A stretch of 64,000 nucleotides of DNA, taken from assembly GCF_056746865.1 (NCBI RefSeq), contig NZ_CM163382.1; one strand, written 5' to 3'. This document shows positions 15,189-46,690 of this stretch, piece by piece (position 1 is the first letter of the stretch; the number at the start of each line of letters is the position of its first letter). The notes beneath the pieces are model-generated. The model was not told where the DNA came from, searched no databases, and saw only the letters and a program-made list of their open reading frames with translations. Made by a program: the position numbers and the translations under genes.

Positions 15189-15952
15189 GGTGGTGACTCC
15201 AATTAGTAGAACATATATTTTTCGATAAAGGCACCGATGACTTTTTCATGAAGTTCTACAGAGCGCGAGAAACAGATAGTTCTGCGGGCCAGACGTTTGA
15301 TTCGGGTTCTCAGAGGTAGATGTTGCGCTCAATGCGCTGAGTAAAAATCTTACCAGTCAGATGCTTCTCCTTCGGTAACTCTCTGGTGTAACTACCCCAT
15401 TCGTCAGTGGTCAACATACCGATGGTAAAAGGGCAAGCAGCGCCAGCAATTCACGACAGGTTTAATCAGTCCGTAGGCCAAAAGTGTAGGCCAGAACGCC
15501 ACCAGTTTTCGTGTTGTACGTGTACCAGAGCCAGTGCTGTCGCGCTTTACTGCCGACAAAACTCCATTGCTCATCAAGTTCGCAGATGAGTGCCATATCA
15601 GCATGAGCGACCGGGTATGACGTTATTCTTCGTGGCGAGAGTTTTTTAAAGTCCGGATGACAGTATTAATGCCGATTTTCAGCGTACGGGCAGTATCGCG
15701 AACTCCGGCACCGTTGAAAGCCATTTCAGTGATTTGCTCTTTAACTCCCGGTTTACGGGCCTCGTAACGGTAAGTGAGCTGAAGCACTCGATGACAGTCA
15801 CGGCAGCGAAATCGATCATGTCCTTTGGGTTCTTCCCGTGACGGTAAACCTGAACGGACTGGCAACAGGAGCAATGAAGGTTAACTGTGACCATGAAAGA
15901 ACCTTAAAAGTGGCTATTATACTCCTAATTCAACTAATTGGAGTCATTACCG
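15189..15952 (-). mobile_element. insA: IS1-family element (divergent), full length with about 23-bp terminal inverted repeats; insA recognisable, insB degraded
   Basis: IRs GGTGGTGACTCCAATTAGTAGAA (15189) and reverse complement of ...TTCAACTAATTGGAGTCATTACC (15952); InsA-like ORF 15623-15874 (QLTYRYEARKPGVKEQITEMAFNGAGVRDTARTLKIGINTVIRTLKNS). Confidence 0.7.
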
Positions 15953-15962
15953 TATTCATAAT

Positions 15963-16130
15963 GGATTAGGTTCAGCAGTTGCTGAAGTGCTTGTAGAAAC
16001 TTGTCCTGTGCCCATGCGTCGGGTGGGGGTTAAAGAGCGGTATGGCCAGGTTGAAACTCAGGACTTTTTACAGAGAGAGTACGGGTTAACCGCGCAAGCT
16101 ATTGTGGCGGCAGCCAGAGAGCTATTGTAA
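15963..16130 (+). pseudogene. 3'-terminal fragment of a gene, possibly transketolase-family C-terminal region, truncated by the IS1 element
   Basis: In-frame peptide GLGSAVAEVLVETCPVPMRRVGVKERYGQVETQDFLQREYGLTAQAIVAAARELL ending at TAA 16128-16130, with no upstream start. Confidence 0.3.
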
Positions 16131-17329: not shown

Positions 17330-18871
17330 ATGCTTAAAAGACGTGATGCTTTTTTAAAGAAAAGCGCGCTGGCAGTGAGTGTGGCCCTGCTGCTCTCGGC
17401 TCAGGCTCAGGCTGTTTTGACAGGGCCTGTTGATGGTAATTCTTCCAGCTTACTGATTGGAGAAAACTCTTTTATTACGAATTTAACTGGTACAGTTAAT
17501 AACACTTTCCTTTTGGGAGGTGGCGCTTTTAACCTGGATTCACCAGGAAGTCTTCAGTTTGGCTCTTTTTCGGAAGTGTATAATTCTCCACACAGTGTCA
17601 CCCTGGGAAGGGATGCCGGTCAGGCTGAGTCAAAATATGGTGTTGCCATAGGTAAGAGCGCTGAGGTATTTAATTCACAGCATAGTGTTGCTATTGGGGG
17701 ATGGGCTGGAATAGAAAATTCTTCAGGCTCTGTAGCTCTGGGCCATGGCTCACAGGTGTCGGGAGAAAATAACGTGGTATCTGTTGGTGCCGGGCCTGAG
17801 GGATATGGAAAGAGTGTCAAAGGAGCACCGGAAACCCGCCGGATTATAAATGTGTCTGATGGTATCAATAACACAGATGCAGCGACGGTAGGGCAACTGA
17901 ATGAACGATTTGATGATGCACAGGTCTTTTTGTTGCAGACGAATGAAAGAATTGACGAGACAGATAAACGTCTTTCAACAGTTCATGCTGAACTCAGCAG
18001 GGATATTATTGCAGGCACATCGGCAGCGGTGACGTATACAGATGTAACAGCGCTTGCACTTCAGGATGAGATAAAGGATGGGACGAACAAAGTACGTGAT
18101 GAGTTGAAATCACAGGGAGACAGTCTGCGTGGTGAGATAGGCGGTGTATACAGAGATGCCCGTGCTCATACTGACAGTCAGGTCACAGCAGTACGTGATG
18201 AACTGAAGGCAGAGGGAGACAGTCTGCGCGGTGAGATAGGCGGTGTATACAGAGATGCCCGTGCTCATACTGACAGTCAGGTCACAGCAGTACGTGATGA
18301 ACTCAGCAGGGATATTATTGCAGGCACATCGGCAGCGGTGGCGTATACGGATGCATCTTCTCTTGCTCTTCAGGATGAAATAAAAGAAAAAGCGGATGAA
18401 ACAGTTCAGGTTTCCCGGGCTTATACAGATAAAAGTGTACGGGATGCCCGTAAAGAAGCGAAAAGCCAGGCAGAACATCTCAGCGATGTGCTTGTGAAGA
18501 ACAGGGCGCAGACGGATGCAGCAATAGCCTCAAATACAGCAGCGATAAGGAATAACAGTCATCGTCTGGATTTGACGGAAGCCTGGCAGAAGATGGCGAC
18601 AGAGAGAATGAATAATATGCAGGAGCAGATTAAAGAGAACCGGAAGGAGTTAAGGGAGAGTGCAGCCCAGAGCGCGGCACTGGCCGGTCTTTTCCAGCCA
18701 TACAGTGTTGGAAAATTTAACGCGACAGCAGCCGTTGGTGGTTACCGTGATGAGCAGGCCATTGCGGTGGGCGTGGGCTACCGTTTCACAGAGAATGTGG
18801 CAGGAAAAGTTGCAGTTGCTGCAGGTGGGTCATCCGCATCGTGGAATGCTGGTGTGAATTTTGAGTTCTGA
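17330..18871 (+). CDS. Trimeric autotransporter adhesin, YadA-like (possibly Eib/Saa-like), 513 aa
   Basis: Signal peptide ([28 protein letters not shown]), head repeats (GVAIG, SVAIGG, SVALGH), neck motif [11 protein letters not shown], coiled-coil stalk with repeats, C-terminal anchor ending NAGVNFEF. Confidence 0.8.
18092..18289 (+). repeat. Two near-identical 99-bp tandem repeats within the adhesin stalk (33-aa units), plus a third partial unit
   Basis: Units start at 18092 and 18191 and differ at only a few positions; a further roughly 45-bp direct repeat at 17984-18036 and 18296-18348. Confidence 0.85.
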
Positions 18872-18892
18872 CAGGTCAGGATTTAGATATCT

Positions 18893-20265
18893 GTCCCGGG
18901 GGGAGTCCCCATAAGCGCTAACTTAAGGGTTGTGGTATTACGCCTGATATGATTTAACGTGCCGATGAATTACTCTCACGATAACTGGTCAGCAATTCTG
19001 GCCCATATTGGTAAGCCCGAAGAACTGGATACTTCGGCACGTAATGCCGGGGCTCTAACCCGCCGCCGCGAAATTCGTGATGCTGCAACTCTGCTACGTC
19101 TGGGGCTGGCTTACGGCCCCGGGGGGATGTCATTACGTGAAGTCACTGCATGGGCTCAGCTCCATGACGTTGCAACATTATCTGACGTGGCTCTCCTGAA
19201 GCGGCTGCGGAATGCCGCCGACTGGTTTGGCATACTTGCCGCACAAACACTTGCTGTACGCGCCGCAGTTACGGGTTGTACAAGCGGAAAGAGATTGCGT
19301 CTTGTCGATGGAACAGCAATCAGTGCGCCCGGGGGCGGCAGCGCTGAATGGCGACTACATATGGGATATGATCCTCATACCTGTCAGTTCACTGATTTTG
19401 AGCTAACCGACAGCAGAGACGCTGAACGGCTGGACCGATTTGCGCAAACGGCAGACGAGATACGCATTGCTGACCGGGGATTCGGTTCGCGTCCCGAATG
19501 TATCCGCTCACTTGCTTTTGGAGAAGCTGATTATATCGTCCGGGTTCACTGGCGAGGATTGCGCTGGTTAACTGCAGAAGGAATGCGCTTTGACATGATG
19601 GGTTTTCTGCGCGGGCTGGATTGCGGTAAGAACGGTGAAACCACTGTAATGATAGGCAATTCAGGTAATAAAAAAGCCGGAGCTCCTTTTCCGGCACGTC
19701 TCATTGCCGTATCACTTCCTCCCGAAAAAGCATTAATCAGTAAAACCCGACTGCTCAGCGAGAATCGTCGAAAAGGACGAGTAGTTCAGGCGGAAACGCT
19801 GGAAGCAGCGGGCCATGTGCTATTGCTAACATCATTACCGGAAGATGAATATTCAGCAGAGCAAGTGGCTGATTGTTACCGTCTGCGATGGCAAATTGAA
19901 CTGGCTTTTAAGCGGCTCAAAAGTTTGCTGCACCTGGATGCTTTGCGTGCAAAGGAACCTGAACTCGCGAAAGCGTGGATATTTGCTAATCTACTCGCCG
20001 CATTTTTAATTGACGACATAATCCAGCCATCGCTGGATTTCCCCCCCAGAAGTGCCGGATCCGAAAAGAAGAACTAACTCGTTGTGGAGAATAACAAAAA
20101 TGGTCATCTGGAGCTTACAGGTGGCCATTCGTGGGACAGTATCCCTGACAGCCTACAAAACGCAATTGAAGAACGCGAGGCATCGTCTTAACGAGGCACC
20201 GAGGCGTCGCATTCTTCAGATGGTTCAACCCTTAAGTTAGCGCTTATGGGGGAGTCCCCCGGGAT
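18893..20265 (+). mobile_element. IS4-family insertion sequence with about 38-bp terminal inverted repeats
   Basis: IRL cccggggggagtccccataagcgctaacttaagggttg (18893-) and IRR caacccttaagttagcgcttatgggggagtcccccggg (-20265); transposase ORF 18959-20077 has the IS4 YREK signature (Y-RL-R-WQI-E-LAFKRL-K). Confidence 0.7.
18959..20077 (+). CDS. IS4-family DDE transposase
   Basis: 372-aa ORF, YREK motif, bounded by the element IRs. Confidence 0.7.
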   Translation: MPMNYSHDNWSAILAHIGKPEELDTSARNAGALTRRREIRDAATLLRLGLAYGPGGMSLREVTAWAQLHDVATLSDVALLKRLRNAADWFGILAAQTLAVRAAVTGCTSGKRLRLVDGTAISAPGGGSAEWRLHMGYDPHTCQFTDFELTDSRDAERLDRFAQTADEIRIADRGFGSRPECIRSLAFGEADYIVRVHWRGLRWLTAEGMRFDMMGFLRGLDCGKNGETTVMIGNSGNKKAGAPFPARLIAVSLPPEKALISKTRLLSENRRKGRVVQAETLEAAGHVLLLTSLPEDEYSAEQVADCYRLRWQIELAFKRLKSLLHLDALRAKEPELAKAWIFANLLAAFLIDDIIQPSLDFPPRSAGSEKKN

Positions 20266-20281
20266 ATAATGAGGTACAGAG

Positions 20282-20737
20282 ATGCTGGATATAATCCTGG
20301 CGACGAGAGATATTTATTTTGAAAAAGCCCTGCGAGAGGTATTTGGAACCGTAAGCAGTCGAATCAGATATATAGAAGATGCCATATCAGACAGAAGAAG
20401 GGTGCAGTCAGGCAGGTCATTCAGATATTATTTTGTATTCTGTGATGATGAGTATACAGATATTGTTCGTATTCTTTTTACCGGAGAGGCCTGCTGTATT
20501 CTGAATAAGTCGATGCTGAATCTGAGAGCGGCCGGAGGTGTGTTGACGCTGGAAGAGCGCAGAGCGGTACTGAACCGGTATTACAGAGGTTTAAGTATTG
20601 CGGAGATTACAGAAGAGACGGGGCAGAATGACAAGACGGTATACGGTCATCTTCGTCGTGCACTGCAGCGGTCTGGATTCCGGAAGGGGCGTTTTATAAA
20701 GGGGAGAGAAGCGGCGGGGGATTCAGGTGTTGAATAA
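20282..20737 (+). CDS. Orphan LuxR/GerE-type HTH regulator with atypical N-terminus
   Basis: C-terminal LTLEERRAVLNRYYRGLSIAEITEETGQNDKTVYGHLRRALQR resembles a LuxR-type HTH; RBS gaggt upstream. Confidence 0.5.
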   Translation: MLDIILATRDIYFEKALREVFGTVSSRIRYIEDAISDRRRVQSGRSFRYYFVFCDDEYTDIVRILFTGEACCILNKSMLNLRAAGGVLTLEERRAVLNRYYRGLSIAEITEETGQNDKTVYGHLRRALQRSGFRKGRFIKGREAAGDSGVE

Positions 20738-21011
20738 TGTATCTTATATTGTGATATCGGTGCTGCTGCTGTTATTTTTTGTTGTATTTGTGACGAATGG
20801 TTAAGAATAAAACATGAGTTGGTGATTATCAGGACAGGTTGCTTGTATATGAAGATAACAAAGGCGGCATTTATTTTTGCGCTGTCAGTGTGGAGTGTTG
20901 CTGTGATATGTCTTTTATTATTTGTACTGGTTGTTCTGGGATAGCCATAGTGAAATAAAAAGCTGTCTGAATTAAATTATTTTGAACACATATTTTAATT
21001 CTGCACTAAAT

Positions 21012-22329
21012 TCAGAATGACCCTGTAAATAATTCTGTGTAACTGCCGCCGTATTAAAGGTGCTCGCTAAGGCGGTCACCGAACTCGATAATAAAACGGC
21101 TCATTGCCAGCCGCCAGTTCTGGATTGGCATACTCCATTTTTTGACGCCGACTGTATCGCCAGATAAATCACTTTTCGCACCGAGTCGTCCGTTGGGAAC
21201 ACCTTGCGCTTCTTTATCGCCTGCCGAATGACACTGTTCAGCGATTCGATGGCATTCGTCGTGTAGATGGCCTTGCGGATATCCGGTGGGTAACCGAAGA
21301 AGGTGTTGAGATTTTCCCAGTGTGTGCGCCAGCTCTTGCTGATTTGCGGGTATTTTTCATCCCAGACGCCTGCAAACTTATCCAACGCCATCAACGCCGT
21401 TTCCTCTGTCGGGGCCTGATATACCGCTTTCAGCCCGCTGGTGACGGCTTTGTAATCCTTCCACGACACGAATTTCAGGCTGTTGCGCACCATATGGATG
21501 ATGCAGAGCTGAATATGCGTCTGCGGGTACACGCTATTTATCGCTTCCGGGAAGCCTTTCAGGCCGTCCACGAAGGCGATAAGGATATCGTTCAGGCCGC
21601 GATTTTTCAGTTCCGTCAGTACATTCAGCCAGAACTTTGCACCTTCATTTTCGGCCAGCCACATATCCAGCAGCTCTTTCTGACCGTCGGTATTGATGCC
21701 CAGCGCGAGGAACACCGCTTTGTTAATGACACTCCCGCTGTGACGAACCTTAACCACAATACAGTCAAGATAAACAATGGGATACAGTGCATCCAACGGT
21801 CGGTTTTGCCATTCAGAGACCTGTTCTTTAACCGCATCGGTCACTTTGGATATCAGCGTGGGCGAGACATCGGCGTCGTACATTTCTTTGAAGGCTGAGG
21901 TAATTTCGCGGGTAGTCATCCCTCTGGCATACAGCGCCAGGATCTGGTTGTCCATGCCGGTAATGCGGGTCTGATTTTTCTTCACCAGTTGTGGTTCGAA
22001 GGTATTTTCACGGTCACGCGGCGTGTTAAGTTCGATCTCGCCATCATCGCACAATACCGTTTTTGACGAGTAGCCATTACGGGTATTAGAGCCTGATTTA
22101 GGAGCATTTTTCTCATGACCTAGATGGTCAGTCAGTTCTGCATTGAGCGCCGTTTCGACGGTAAGCTTTGTCAACATGCGTGAAAACTGGTTGAGGTCGG
22201 CTTCGGTTTTAAGGCCTTTGGCCAGTTCAGCCGCAAGGACTTTAAGTTTCTTTTCGTCCATCGTTTGCCTGTCTCCGTTGTTGGAGTGAACATATCAAAA
22301 ACAGGCAATTACACAATTTTAATTACAGT
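21012..22329 (-). mobile_element. IS256-family insertion sequence with imperfect terminal IRs and 9-bp target duplication (ttcagaatg)
   Basis: IRs ACCCTGTAAATAATTCTGTGTAACTGCC (left) and reverse complement of GGCAATTACACAATTTTAATTACAGTCTC (right); flanks recreate a sequence found uninterrupted at 46537-46690. Confidence 0.65.
21047..22261 (-). pseudogene. IS256-family (mutator-type) transposase, frameshifted near its 3' end
   Basis: Protein is IS256-like throughout; the expected C-terminus (SKKWSMPIQNWRLAMSRFIIEFGDRL...) is readable in another frame after a poly-A tract at about 21140. Confidence 0.65.
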
Positions 22330-22469
22330 CTCTTCAGAATGGGTAATCAGTGACCGTCCTGACGGTCACTTTAAAGAAAATGCATATTACACAGAATGGT
22401 AAACAGGCTCAACATAGAGCTTGAAGGTAGTTGTTGCCTTGTAATAAAATGTGTGATTCATAGACATCG

Positions 22470-23058
22470 TTTCAATTTTCTCAGTTCAAGTTCAGGCTTG
22501 TAATTCTGTTCCTGTATATGCTCTTCATTGGGCTGATAGTTTGCATGAACGGCATCGGAGTATGGTGTTTTCTCAGCAAGTTCAAAGTAGCGTTCCATCG
22601 GAGTTTTACCGTTGTGAGCGCTATGAGGACGTTCCCTGTTATAGTAATGCTACCATTCTGCTAGCAATCCCTTCAGGTCATCAGCAGAAAGATCTACGGT
22701 AGCGTAAAACTCAGCTTTGTCTGTCTTTTGGGAACGTCCAACCTTTATTACATCAGGCGACAACTACCTTGAAAAACGCCGTTACTCACCGATCCCCTTC
22801 ACGGTAATACGCACTATTGCCAGTGAGATTGAATGAAGTCGTTTTAACTCGCTTTGAATACGTCTTGCACCCAGATTTCGCTGAGAACGTAACTTCCAGA
22901 ATCAGAGCGACTTCGCAAGTGCTGGTTTTCGTTGATGGTGAACGCTTGGAGCGACGGCTGTAGCTTTCCAGACCAGCGATGCCCTGAGCCAGATATCTGC
23001 GCCACCATTTACACAATGTGGGCCGAGAAGTGCCACAGTGACGGCATACAAATGTCAA
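22470..23058 (-). pseudogene. IS481/IS3-like transposase remnant (HTH fragment plus integrase-core C-terminus with in-frame TAG)
   Basis: N-terminal fragment CKWWRRYLAQGIAGLESYSRRSKRSP and C-terminal fragment HYYNRERPHSAHNGKTPMERY separated by stops. Confidence 0.4.
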
Positions 23059-28547: not shown

Positions 28548-30289
28548 TGAATCACAAAGACTGGGATTTGGTCAACCGCCGCTTGGTGGCAAAAATGTTG
28601 TCTGAGCTGGAGTATGAGCAGGTTTTCCACGCGGAATCTCAGGGCGATGACCGCTACTGCATTAACCTGCCGGGAGCACAATGGCGCTTCATCGCTGAAC
28701 GTGGTATCTGGGGCTGGCTCTGGATTGATGCTCAAACTCTGCGCTGCGCGGACGAGCCAGTACTGGCTCAGACGCTGCTGATGCAGCTAAAGCAGGTACT
28801 GTCAATGAGCGATGCAACCGTTGCTGAGCATATGCAGGATTTGTATTCCACGCTGCTGGGCGACCTGCAACTGCTGAAAGCCCGTCGCGGGCTGAGCGCC
28901 AGTGACCTGATTAATCTTAGTGCCGACCGCCTGCAATGCCTGCTGAGCGGTCATCCTAAATTCGTTTTTAATAAAGGTCGCCGTGGCTGGGGTAAAGAGG
29001 CGCTGGAACGATATGCGCCAGAGTATGCCAACACCTTTAGACTGCACTGGCTGGCGGTAAAACGTGAACATATGATCTGGCGCTGTGATAACGAGATGGA
29101 TATTCATCAGTTGTTGACGGCCGCAATGGATCCGCAGGAGTTTGCCCGCTTCAGTCAGGTCTGGCAGGAAAACGGACTGGATCATAACTGGCTGCCGCTG
29201 CCTGTACATCCGTGGCAGTGGCAGCAAAAAATCGCCACCGACTTCATCGCTGATTTTGCCGAAGGCAGGATGGTGTCTCTCGGCGAGTTTGGCGACCAGT
29301 GGCTCGCCCAGCAGTCGCTGCGTACCCTGACCAACGCCAGTCGCCGGGGTGGGCTGGATATCAAGCTGCCGCTGACCATCTACAACACCTCATGCTACCG
29401 GGGGATTCCTGGCAGATACATCGCTGCCGGACCACTGGCTTCACGCTGGCTACAACAGGTTTTTGCGACCGACGCTACCCTGGTGCAAAGCGGTGCAGTG
29501 ATCCTTGGTGAACCGGCTGCAGGCTATGTCTCCCATGAAGGCTATGCCGCGCTTGCCCGGGCTCCCTATCGCTACCAGGAAATGCTTGGTGTTATCTGGC
29601 GGGAGAATCCGTGCCGCTGGCTGAAACCGGATGAAAGTCCGGTTCTGATGGCAACACTGATGGAGTGCGACGAAAACGATCAGCCGCTGGCAGGCGCATA
29701 TATAGACCGCTCCGGGCTGGACGCTGAAACCTGGCTTACGCAACTGTTCCGGGTGGTCGTGGTTCCTCTGTATCACCTGCTTTGCCGCTACGGTGTCGCG
29801 CTTATTGCACATGGACAAAATATAACGCTCGCCATGAAAAAGGGGGTTCCACAGCGTGTTCTGCTGAAAGACTTCCAGGGCGATATGCGGCTGGTGAAAG
29901 AAGAGTTCCCCGAAATGGACTCTTTGCCTCAGGAGGTTCGTGATGTTACATCCCGCCTGAGTGCGGACTACTTAATCCATGATTTGCAGACGGGTCACTT
30001 CGTGACAGTACTGCGTTTTATTTCGCCACTGATGGTTCGTCTTGGCGTACCTGAACGGCGATTTTATCAACTGCTGGCAGCAGTGTTGAGTGATTACATG
30101 AAAAAACATCCACAAATGTCAGAGCGTTTTGCGCTTTTCTCACTTTTCAGGCCACAAATCATTCGCGTGGTGCTGAACCCGGTAAAACTGACCTGGCCTG
30201 ATCTGGATGGCGGCAGCCGCATGCTGCCGAATTACCTTGAGGATCTGCAAAATCCGCTGTGGCTGGTAACTCAGGAATATGAATCATGA
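28547..30289 (+). CDS. iucC: Aerobactin synthetase IucC
   Basis: 580-aa IucA/IucC-family ORF; overlapping start/stop with neighbours. Confidence 0.9.
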   Translation: MNHKDWDLVNRRLVAKMLSELEYEQVFHAESQGDDRYCINLPGAQWRFIAERGIWGWLWIDAQTLRCADEPVLAQTLLMQLKQVLSMSDATVAEHMQDLYSTLLGDLQLLKARRGLSASDLINLSADRLQCLLSGHPKFVFNKGRRGWGKEALERYAPEYANTFRLHWLAVKREHMIWRCDNEMDIHQLLTAAMDPQEFARFSQVWQENGLDHNWLPLPVHPWQWQQKIATDFIADFAEGRMVSLGEFGDQWLAQQSLRTLTNASRRGGLDIKLPLTIYNTSCYRGIPGRYIAAGPLASRWLQQVFATDATLVQSGAVILGEPAAGYVSHEGYAALARAPYRYQEMLGVIWRENPCRWLKPDESPVLMATLMECDENDQPLAGAYIDRSGLDAETWLTQLFRVVVVPLYHLLCRYGVALIAHGQNITLAMKKGVPQRVLLKDFQGDMRLVKEEFPEMDSLPQEVRDVTSRLSADYLIHDLQTGHFVTVLRFISPLMVRLGVPERRFYQLLAAVLSDYMKKHPQMSERFALFSLFRPQIIRVVLNPVKLTWPDLDGGSRMLPNYLEDLQNPLWLVTQEYES

Positions 30290-31563
30290 AAAAAAGTGTC
30301 GATTTTATTGGTGTAGGGACAGGGCCATTTAATCTCAGCATTGCTGCGTTGTCACATCAGATCGAAGAACTGGACTGTCTCTTCTTTGATGAACATCCTC
30401 ATTTTTCCTGGCATCCGGGTATGCTGGTACCGGATTGTCATATGCAGACCGTCTTTCTGAAAGATCTGGTCAGTGCTGTTGCACCTACAAATCCCTACAG
30501 CTTTGTTAACTATCTGGTGAAGCACAAAAAGTTCTATCGCTTCCTTACAAGCAGACTACGTACAGTATCCCGTGAAGAGTTTTCTGACTACCTCCGCTGG
30601 GCTGCTGAAGATATGAATAACCTGTATTTCAGTCATACCGTTGAAAACATTGATTTCGATAAAAAACGTCGATTGTTTCTGGTGCAAACCAGCCGGGGAG
30701 AATATTTTGCCCACAATATCTGCCTTGGTACAGGAAAACAACCTTATTTACCACCCTGTGTGAAGCATATGACACAATCCTGTTTCCATGCCAGTGAAAT
30801 GAATCTTCGTCGGCCGGACCTTAGTGAAAAACGGGTAACCGTGGTTGGTGGAGGACAGAGTGGTGCAGACCTGTTCCTTAATGCATTACGCGGGGAATGG
30901 GGAGAAGCGGCGGAAATAAACTGGATCTCCCGGCGGAATAATTTTAACGCACTGGATGAGGCTGCTTTTGCTGATGAGTATTTTACACCTGAATATATTT
31001 CAGGCTTCTCCGGACTGGAGGAAGATATTCGCCATCAGTTACTGGATGAGCAGAAAATGACATCGGATGGCATCACTGCCGATTCTTTACTGACCATTTA
31101 TCGTGAGTTGTACCACCGTTTTGAAGTTCTGAGAAAACCAAGAAATATCCGTCTGCTACCCAGCCGCTCGGTAACAACTCTGGAAAGTAGTGGTCCTGGC
31201 TGGAAGTTGCTGATGGAGCATCATCTGGATCAGGGCAGGGAGAGCCTGGAAAGTGATGTGGTGATTTTCGCCACAGGTTACCGTTCTGCGTTGCCACAAA
31301 TACTTCCCTCACTGATGCCGCTGATCACCATGCACGATAAGAACACCTTTAAAGTGCGTGATGACTTCACTCTGGAATGGAGTGGCCCGAAAGAGAACAA
31401 CATCTTCGTGGTCAACGCCAGTATGCAAACCCATGGCATCGCCGAACCTCAGCTCAGCCTGATGGCATGGAGATCTGCACGTATTCTTAATCGTGTAATG
31501 GGACGTGATTTATTCGATCTCAGTATGCCGCCCGCCCTGATTCAGTGGCGCAGCGGCACCTAG
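30286..31563 (+). CDS. iucD: L-lysine N6-monooxygenase IucD
   Basis: 425-aa ORF with N-terminal FAD-binding motif GVGTGPFN. Confidence 0.9.
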   Translation: MKKSVDFIGVGTGPFNLSIAALSHQIEELDCLFFDEHPHFSWHPGMLVPDCHMQTVFLKDLVSAVAPTNPYSFVNYLVKHKKFYRFLTSRLRTVSREEFSDYLRWAAEDMNNLYFSHTVENIDFDKKRRLFLVQTSRGEYFAHNICLGTGKQPYLPPCVKHMTQSCFHASEMNLRRPDLSEKRVTVVGGGQSGADLFLNALRGEWGEAAEINWISRRNNFNALDEAAFADEYFTPEYISGFSGLEEDIRHQLLDEQKMTSDGITADSLLTIYRELYHRFEVLRKPRNIRLLPSRSVTTLESSGPGWKLLMEHHLDQGRESLESDVVIFATGYRSALPQILPSLMPLITMHDKNTFKVRDDFTLEWSGPKENNIFVVNASMQTHGIAEPQLSLMAWRSARILNRVMGRDLFDLSMPPALIQWRSGT

Positions 31564-46482: not shown

Positions 46483-46536
46483 AAATCTCCATCCAGGTTG
46501 CGTAAGAGCCACTTTTCATCCGTCGTCGATATCTGG

Positions 46537-46690
46537 GATAGCCATAGTGAAATAAAAAGCTGTCTGAATTAAATTATTTTGCACATATATTTTAATCCTG
46601 CACTGAATTAAGAATGGGTAATCAGTGACTGCTTGGACGGTCACTTTTAAGAGAAGGCATTAACAGAGAATGGTAAACAGGCTCAATATA
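46537..46690 (+). repeat. Uninterrupted copy of the sequence that flanks both sides of the IS256-family element at 21012-22329
   Basis: 46537-46602 matches 20936-21011 and 46603-46690 matches 22330-22420 with few mismatches. Confidence 0.7.

Follow-up and report, generated by a model that had tools for sequence, protein, structure and literature searches.

A TosE/ORF-156-like regulator gene behind an Eib-related adhesin gene, separated from it by IS186, in Escherichia coli

The 64,000-nucleotide (nt) stretch of NCBI RefSeq assembly GCF_056746865.1, contig NZ_CM163382.1, that was analyzed here (the window) contains on its plus strand, at 20282..20737, an ATG-initiated gene for a 151-amino-acid (aa) DNA-binding protein, referred to below as the regulator. 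The regulator is probably an adhesin-coupled small DNA-binding protein of the TosE/ORF-156 family that was uncoupled from its adhesin gene in this window by an insertion of IS186. Family membership, the cassette architecture, the native linkage to the adhesin gene, and the IS186 event are established. An earlier reading of the window, made from the letters without database searches (the sequence-only reading), had described the gene as an orphan LuxR-type regulator stranded between two insertion sequence (IS) elements, with possible roles in virulence or in control of the nearby adhesin or aerobactin genes. The comparisons below correct this reading of the island: the regulator is neither an orphan nor tied to aerobactin.

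A protein identical to the regulator is present in RefSeq as WP_000884155.1, with the name 'sigma factor-like helix-turn-helix DNA-binding protein', and a GAGG Shine-Dalgarno sequence is located 7 nt 5' of the ATG at 20282. At the C terminus, a helix-turn-helix (HTH; aa 87-130) matched Pfam Sigma70_r4_2 with 30.9 bits versus a gathering score of 25.7 (E 2.2e-7). Pfam, AlphaFold2 (AF2), and superposition place a sigma-70 region 4-like HTH at aa 87-131 (20540..20674, plus strand). Neither GerE/LuxR (PF00196) nor Response_reg (PF00072) was among the Pfam matches at E ≤ 1, and the sole trace of the GerE type was the UhpA model of NCBIfam, which gave 13.9 bits (E 0.034) versus a cutoff of 258 bits. 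The regulator has neither the GerE HTH nor the canonical receiver of LuxR/FixJ/NarL response regulators. The designation LuxR-type holds in the loose sense of the literature, in which TosE is called a LuxR-family protein, but not for the domain, which scores as sigma-70 region 4 rather than GerE. NCBIfam also returned weak matches to region 4 of extracytoplasmic function (ECF) sigma factors, well under their cutoffs (19 bits versus 42.9 for TIGR02937; approximately 14 to 21 bits versus 125 to 226 for other ECF models). Sigma region 2 was not detected with Pfam, only region 4, and no Pfam family matched the N-terminal 86 aa. The open reading frame (ORF), Pfam, and RefSeq confirm the earlier description of a 151-aa protein with a C-terminal HTH and a noncanonical N terminus, but the end that had been assigned to the feature, 20944, overshoots the stop codon by 207 nt, so that another, hydrophobic ORF of 31 to 41 aa falls within the feature. 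Database proteins of 74 aa named 'sigma-70 family' were rejected as truncations of the regulator; they reflect start codon choices (M78) on intact DNA. A comparison of 18800-22500 with Rfam returned nothing.

The route to homologs was a candidate-driven comparison with TosE, followed by tblastn of TosE against phages and plasmids. The results of an exhaustive phmmer search of 1.84 billion representatives were confined to near-identical E. coli sequences, a single Salmonella fragment, and generic HTH matches; word-indexed searches, queried with either the protein alone or a joint profile, likewise gave no more than near-identical E. coli sequences and generic HTH matches. True relatives scoring 25 to 40 bits are missed by such large searches because approximately 36 bits are required for significance at a database size of 1.84 billion sequences. 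The first lead was phrog_6585, a profile annotated 'unknown function' in PHROG, which matched aa 3-75 of the regulator (profile positions 2-72 of 156; E 4e-4). TosE matches the same profile with 105 bits, and phrog_6585 is the TosE family profile.

Direct comparisons with TosE gave consistent results. BLASTP against TosE of strain CFT073 (WP_001024300.1) aligned residues 2-132 of the regulator with residues 1-143 of TosE at 22% identity (37.7 bits; pairwise E 9e-9), and hhalign of the regulator with the TosE clade gave a probability of 92% over 128 columns (E 6.4e-7). The permutation z score of the regulator against TosE was 12.7 for the whole proteins and 5.0 when only the N-terminal domains were compared (2 of 2,000 shuffles reached the score); the N termini of TosF and HyxR, compared with that of the regulator, gave z scores near 0 (-0.2 for HyxR). 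A family hidden Markov model (HMM) was built from TosE and the plasmid and Eib-prophage ORF-156 clades, with the window protein left out. It scored the regulator at 40.5 bits over residues 3-133, and the best of 2,000 shuffles scored 7.9. Both domains hold residues that are invariant between the regulator and the TosE clade. The best Pfam match of TosE is also Sigma70_r4_2 (27.1 bits), with GerE below threshold at 19.7. In its size of approximately 150 to 160 aa, its sigma-4-like HTH at the C terminus, and its lack of a canonical receiver or GerE domain, the regulator has the form of this family. Therefore, its assignment to the TosE/prophage ORF-156 family, which is known but barely characterized, is well supported by these sequence comparisons.

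With TosE as the query, the phage search recovered ORF-156A/C/D/E of the Eib prophages of strain ECOR-9 and many Shiga toxin (Stx) and related phages, and tblastn also found TosE-like genes on plasmids. For example, plasmid p118 of E. coli O22:H8 (L022) and plasmid A of strain M8 (L023) encode TosE-like proteins that are 37% and 62% identical to TosE, respectively. These genes stand behind very large 'hypothetical' or hemolysin-type proteins, and the tos-like cluster of the M8 plasmid has a gene of the PapB family and one for an autotransporter as neighbors. A tblastn match in 'Bacteriophage sp.' MT836610 (95% coverage, E = 3) was rejected as an unrelated ORF in a plasmid-like mobilization region.

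AlphaFold with the regulator sequence alone was uninformative, with a predicted local distance difference test (pLDDT) score of 37. AF2 with an alignment of seven family members gave a pLDDT of 62 for the regulator overall and predicted three helices for the HTH (residues 90-131) with a pLDDT of 82 to 89. When the models were compared with the PDB by Foldseek, the HTH superposed on ECF sigma region 4 structures at 0.6 to 1.0 Å over 42 to 46 residues; there was no match at E ≤ 0.001 for the regulator and none at all for the N-terminal domain. With the N-terminal domain as the query, phmmer matched PDB sequences at chance level only (BIRC6, E 1.6). That domain (aa 1-78; 20282..20515, plus strand), delimited from collinearity with TosE and from AF2, is predicted with low-to-moderate confidence to be beta-alpha-beta-alpha-beta, a receiver-like but degenerate arrangement. 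At the position of the receiver acidic pair after beta-1 the regulator reads T8-R9-D10 rather than a DD pair, whereas D55, after the predicted beta-3, is invariant between the regulator and TosE. With approximately 78 aa, the predicted domain has no space for beta-4 and beta-5. The model suggests that the N-terminal domain may resemble a truncated, degenerate receiver.

In loci free of IS elements, the regulator gene starts 61 nt past the stop codon of a co-oriented adhesin gene. In the window this gene (17330..18871, plus strand) encodes a YadA-like, Eib-related trimeric autotransporter adhesin with Pfam YadA_anchor, YadA_stalk, and YadA_head domains, named 'YadA-like family protein' in RefSeq. 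The adhesin shares 57% identity with EibA over the last 118 aa and 40% identity with EibD over 225 aa. Of the 183 complete E. coli genomes with the locus, 164 retain an uninterrupted native junction of adhesin gene, 61-nt spacer, and regulator gene (e.g., L001, L018, and L019). The regulator thus natively occupies the position typical of its family, directly 3' of a co-oriented large adhesin gene, and in the window this link is broken by IS186. The synteny supports the connection to the nearby adhesin that the sequence-only reading had raised, and its term 'decoupled' was apt, as IS186 separates the two genes.

The tandem stalk repeats of the adhesin gene (17976-18384) vary in number between strains, and products of 369, 388, 392, 452, 480, and 513 aa occur among otherwise near-identical loci. 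Two other adhesins were considered and set aside. A plasmid-encoded Enterobacter adhesin (43% identity) has no regulator downstream and was rejected as a counterpart of the cassette. In a 2026 paper on 'eYadA' in avian pathogenic E. coli (APEC), motility rose on deletion of the adhesin, with only partial complementation; that adhesin is encoded at another locus (cueR-ybbJ) and is followed by unrelated genes.

The native spacer is preserved in the window in two parts. The left part (18872..18909, plus strand) contains the left arm of a hairpin and the left copy of a target duplication (ggggagtccc, 18900..18909). The right part (20249..20281, plus strand) contains the right copy (20249..20258), the remainder of the hairpin, a TATAAT hexamer (20265..20270), and the GAGG ribosome-binding site. 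The hexamer is without a -35 partner, and no promoter-like site was found on the plus strand of the spacer. In the IS-free spacer of L001 the hairpin has an 11-bp GC stem, with a folding energy of -32 kcal/mol for an 81-nt stretch (z -2.9), and no U-tract. Co-transcription of the regulator gene with the adhesin gene in the IS-free arrangement is plausible.

The element between the two genes is a copy of IS186/IS421 (IS4 family; 18910..20248) with its transposase on the plus strand. The transposase scored 133 bits with the NCBIfam IS4 model, and RefSeq names the element 'IS4-like element IS421 family'. It begins 38 nt past the end of the adhesin gene. The ends are 23-bp inverted repeats, CATAAGCGCTAACTTAAGGGTTG at 18910 and its complement ending at 20248, and are flanked by the 10-bp target duplication at 18900-18909 and 20249-20258; the L001 locus is without IS186, with clean breakpoints. 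Typical of IS186 are inverted terminal repeats of 23 bp, duplication of approximately 10 bp of the target, and a hot spot composed of a G-run, 3 to 6 nt, and a C-run. The insertion in the window has these repeats, this duplication, and this form of target, the native site being a GGGGGG-AGT-CCCCC hairpin. The junction in the orientation of the window was found in six complete genomes, and in strain 98232 (L017) IS186 is present at the same site in the opposite orientation. Because both orientations occur in different strains, the site was struck by IS186 at least twice. The adhesin-regulator hairpin (18893-18909/20249-20264) is a recurrent IS186 hot spot, and the copy in the window is a recent insertion. 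The IS186 copy of strain 98232 is itself truncated by an IS66-family element. The flanking elements had been correctly recognized before as IS4 family upstream (18910..20248) and IS256 family downstream (21020..22332), but the lack of an adjacent operon is not intrinsic to the regulator: it stands isolated in the window because IS186 inserted between it and the adhesin gene.

These observations suggest how the locus might function. In the IS-free arrangement, the regulator would be transcribed with, or just after, the adhesin gene and would act in trans to adjust other surface programs while the adhesin is made. By analogy with TosE and TosF, its likeliest target would be flagellar motility, which would be repressed; upon overproduction, TosE/TosF are reported to suppress motility or the expression of fliC (PMC5956150, PMC7545054, PMC10392849). 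In the window, IS186, positioned in its preferred G-run/C-run hairpin, separates the regulator from the adhesin physically and probably also transcriptionally, and the regulator gene would be reached at best by read-through from the co-oriented IS186 transposase gene. We infer co-transcription, DNA targets, and a motility effect for the regulator.

Several points weigh against this proposal. The regulator is just 21 to 27% identical to TosE and ORF-156, these relatives are themselves barely characterized, and confidence in the model of the N-terminal domain is low. A T-run follows the stem-loop in the Eib cassettes, and the downstream gene may therefore not simply be co-transcribed with the adhesin gene. 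The published motility effect is that of TosE and TosF together, and no TosF-like gene is present at the regulator locus. The regulator gene has been interrupted elsewhere by independent IS insertions (L009, L010, L012, and L005 of Salmonella). Among 11 loci there were five substitutions in the coding sequence, the fifth of which was at a third codon position; because the other four change the amino acid, there is no positive sign of recent purifying selection. A literature search found no paper that names WP_000884155 or its RefSeq product name.

It is possible, although not the likely outcome, that the regulator is instead dedicated to its own adhesin gene, binding the adhesin promoter to activate or repress it, rather than acting on motility. 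The linkage to the adhesin is tight and conserved, and there is a precedent in the LuxR-type proteins AutA/AutR (HyxA/HyxR), which bind the upaB promoter (PMC4844996). However, the regulator has only the HTH in common with HyxR (23.5 bits), the N termini being dissimilar, and the homolog TosE does not regulate tosA, which is controlled by TosR. Furthermore, a position 3' of the target fits a role in output or cross talk equally well. Regulation of its own adhesin and trans-acting control of other surface programs are compatible and not mutually exclusive.

A further explanation, which we consider unlikely, is that the gene is a decaying and functionless relic of a prophage-derived moron cassette that hitchhikes with the adhesin gene. 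Beyond the near-identical E. coli copies, the 1.84 billion representatives contained only generic HTH matches at E ≤ 1e-3. Independent IS insertions into the gene or its leader have occurred in at least five lineages, the substitutions observed are mostly nonsynonymous, the putative ORF-60 counterpart described below looks frameshifted, and RNA-seq reads for tosE/tosF were too few to make a call. In contrast, approximately 180 complete genomes, with varied chromosomal contexts, carry the ORF intact and with at least 99% identity. Both of its domains share invariant residues with the TosE clade despite a GC content of 46% versus 28%, which implies that the protein has been under long-term constraint.

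The insertions within the gene map to window-equivalent positions 20291-20429. They comprise an IS3-family element at approximately 20291-20296, an insertion of unidentified type at approximately 20317-20324, and IS21 plus IS4 at approximately 20398-20403. In the Salmonella enterica contig (L005), which has the island, the gene is disrupted at 20429.

A small ORF with a C-terminal transmembrane segment is located downstream of the regulator gene, in the position of orf-60 of the Eib cassettes, at 20849..20944 (plus strand). It encodes 31 aa from its ATG (41 aa from a TTG at 20819) and has no RefSeq annotation. Its last 29 aa and the tail of ORF-60 are 34% identical in a gap-free alignment, both segments ending one residue before the C terminus, but the alignment is weak (z = 2.8; 47 of 3,000 block shuffles reached the score). 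A TAATG overlap of stop and start codons is present at 20735-20739; the frame of this ATG closes after five codons (20735-20754), and frame 2 is open from the regulator stop codon through 20944. At most, these features are suggestive of a decayed, 5'-frameshifted counterpart of ORF-60. Two homopolymers are found nearby, a G-run at 20717-20721 (G5) and a T-run at approximately 20774-20779 (T6).

The open frame raises the question of whether the regulator gene represents just the 5' portion of a longer gene, for a membrane-anchored protein of approximately 220 aa with the HTH and two transmembrane segments, that was frameshifted at these two runs. The G4/T7 allele of L006 (P0002), in an assembly that otherwise looks clean, indeed gives a continuous 220-aa ORF. 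However, T6 was found in 12 of the 13 loci with a readable T-run and G5 in all 10 other loci with a readable G-run, so that L006 alone has G4/T7, and the other long variants (P0023 and P0049) come from assemblies with further homopolymer errors. TosE and ORF-156 lack a membrane extension, and the hydrophobic segment of the Eib cassettes is a separate, translationally coupled ORF of 60 aa. This explanation is very unlikely. The alignment with TosE runs from residue 2 of the regulator to the end of its HTH, and the prospect that the gene would prove to be a fragment of a larger disrupted one was not borne out. The variants of 173, 220, and 225 aa (L006, P0002, P0049, and P0023) were rejected as real fusions; they are probably homopolymer (long-read) errors, or else rare alleles.

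The regulator gene is present in approximately 3% of complete E. coli genomes (183 genomes), and many of these are of avian and human extraintestinal origin. In all contexts examined, the adhesin-regulator module and approximately 350 nt downstream of it were at least 99% identical. The module occurs in an aerobactin island (the window, SMS-3-5, and XDL), in a locus with phosphotransferase system (PTS)-transketolase, MliC, nanE-PTS, and MurR genes but without aerobactin genes (APEC O2-211 and others), and beside YaiO and glycosyltransferase genes. Upstream of the adhesin gene, at approximately 15950-16130 (L002, 7727-7902; L018, 6480-6665), are the 3' remnant of a transketolase gene and a fragment of a transposase.

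Control of the neighboring aerobactin genes (shiF and iucABCD-iutA), which the sequence-only reading had suggested, is highly improbable. It has in its favor the proximity in this one island, where shiF is approximately 3.8 kb downstream. Three IS elements lie between the regulator and shiF, the aerobactin-side junction was found in just 64 of the 183 genomes, and the module is present without aerobactin genes in the PTS-transketolase/MliC/nanE locus and beside YaiO and glycosyltransferase genes. Moreover, the island copy retains the transketolase 3' fragment, showing that the module was imported into the aerobactin island from the PTS-transketolase locus, which argues against a dedicated role for iuc or shiF. 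Within the aerobactin cluster, iucD (30286-31563) is an ORF of 425 aa in the window; RefSeq labels it 'frameshifted' in the near-identical records CP043033 and CP080146, with an annotated pseudogene span of 1,334 nt.

The junction with the aerobactin side is marked by an IS256-family element on the minus strand (21020..22332), the transposase of which is frameshifted (Pfam Transposase_mut, 382 bits). The element is flanked by a 9-bp target duplication (21011..21019 and 22333..22341), with breakpoints that were set by comparison with an uninterrupted second copy at 46532..46690. It splits a segment of approximately 160 nt (20935-21019 and 22342-22416) that is uninterrupted at 46532-46690 with 85 to 94% identity, where an ISL3 element ends directly beside it. 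This segment contains the small ORF's stop codon and may represent the boundary of a module or a scar of recombination.

The least credible explanation casts the regulator as a minimal sigma factor of the ECF type or a piece of such a factor. Although its top Pfam and NCBIfam matches are sigma-70 region 4 and ECF sigma models and its HTH superposes on sigma-4 domains, it has no region 2 match where ECF factors have regions 2 and 4, its family scores are approximately 20 bits versus cutoffs of 125 to 220, its N-terminal domain has predicted beta strands unlike the all-helical sigma-2 fold, and its true homologs are TosE and ORF-156.

The identification of the regulator as an adhesin-linked member of the TosE/ORF-156 family provides a link between TosE of uropathogenic E. 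coli (UPEC), ORF-156 of Eib and Stx prophages (PHROG 6585), and the 'sigma factor-like' gene of the island, all of which are encoded behind large adhesin genes. The annotations examined name the three generically, and no link among them was found in the literature examined. If the motility effect of TosE were common to the family, a private regulator of motility or surface programs would be a general trait of mobile adhesin cassettes, and natural IS186 insertions like that in the window would be ready-made uncoupling mutants. A broader and decidedly tentative extension is that TosE/ORF-156-like proteins, either alone or accompanied by a small membrane protein, might constitute a portable module, carried by phages, plasmids, and islands, that couples unrelated classes of large adhesins (type I-secreted RTX adhesins and type Vc Eib-like trimeric autotransporters) to a motility or surface switch. 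Insertion of IS186 at the GC hairpin might then serve as an evolutionary uncoupling switch.

Several adhesin-linked regulators reciprocally control motility, including PapX/SfaX/FocX and VatX of the MarR family, MrpJ, PefI-SrgD, and EcpR/MatA. These regulators follow the same logic as that proposed here, in which a small trans-acting regulator is encoded 3' of or beside an adhesin or autotransporter gene, and the vat-vatX pair is visible in L015. However, they are members of different families (MarR, XRE, and GerE), and no kinship with the regulator was seen past the generic HTH. AutA/AutR (HyxA/HyxR) have a LuxR-like HTH and no cognate kinase, are encoded beside the autotransporter gene upaB (hyxB), and have global effects in APEC (PMC4844996). 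They differ from the regulator in that they are approximately 255 aa long, divergently organized, and not 3' of the adhesin gene, with similarity limited to the HTH.

The tos operon of UPEC (tosRCBDAEF) offers a parallel. TosE is of similar size (160 versus 151 aa), is collinearly similar to the regulator across both domains with the same Pfam signature, and has relatives with the generic RefSeq name of the regulator. tosE is located just 3' of the large adhesin gene tosA on the same strand, with a gap of 120 nt compared with the native gap of 61 nt for the regulator. Both proteins are restricted to Escherichia and are found on islands, plasmids, and phages. There are also differences. Identity is 22 to 27%, the GC content is 28% for TosE versus 46% for the regulator, and the linker joining N-terminal domain and HTH is approximately 15 residues shorter in the regulator. 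The partner of TosE is the type I-secreted RTX adhesin TosA, whereas that of the regulator is a type Vc trimeric autotransporter, and the window has neither a TosF-like second regulator nor a TosR/PapB-like gene nearby.

The Eib prophages, like Stx and related phages, carry a three-part cassette of the same architecture as the window locus. The ORF-156 proteins of P-EibA/C/D/E (ECOR-9) and of Stx and related phages are approximately 22% identical to the regulator (25 bits in pairwise comparison). No reported function for ORF-156 or ORF-60 was found in the literature; therefore, the resemblance to the Eib cassettes adds context but no mechanism. The Eib cassettes are in the tail fibre region of prophages, whereas the window locus is on a chromosomal island or at a metabolic locus. 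The window hairpin lacks the T-run present in P-EibD, and the window counterpart of ORF-60 appears degraded at its 5' end. In P-EibD, eibD, which encodes a YadA-like immunoglobulin-binding trimeric autotransporter, is followed by an annotated stem-loop, orf-156D, and orf-60D, with 88 nt between eibD and orf-156D, and P-EibA and phage GER2 have the same order. ORF-60 is 60 aa long with a C-terminal transmembrane segment, and its start overlaps the orf-156 stop codon (TGATG), as in the TAATG overlap of the window. The N termini of the regulator and ORF-156 are alike (MKVILATRNRYLEYGL versus MLDIILATRDIYFEKAL), and the C termini of the window and Eib adhesins (EibA and EibD) are 40 to 57% identical. 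The window thus repeats the eib cassette: an Eib-like adhesin gene, a hairpin, an ORF-156-like gene (approximately 155 aa in Eib), and a small ORF with a C-terminal transmembrane segment that weakly resembles ORF-60.

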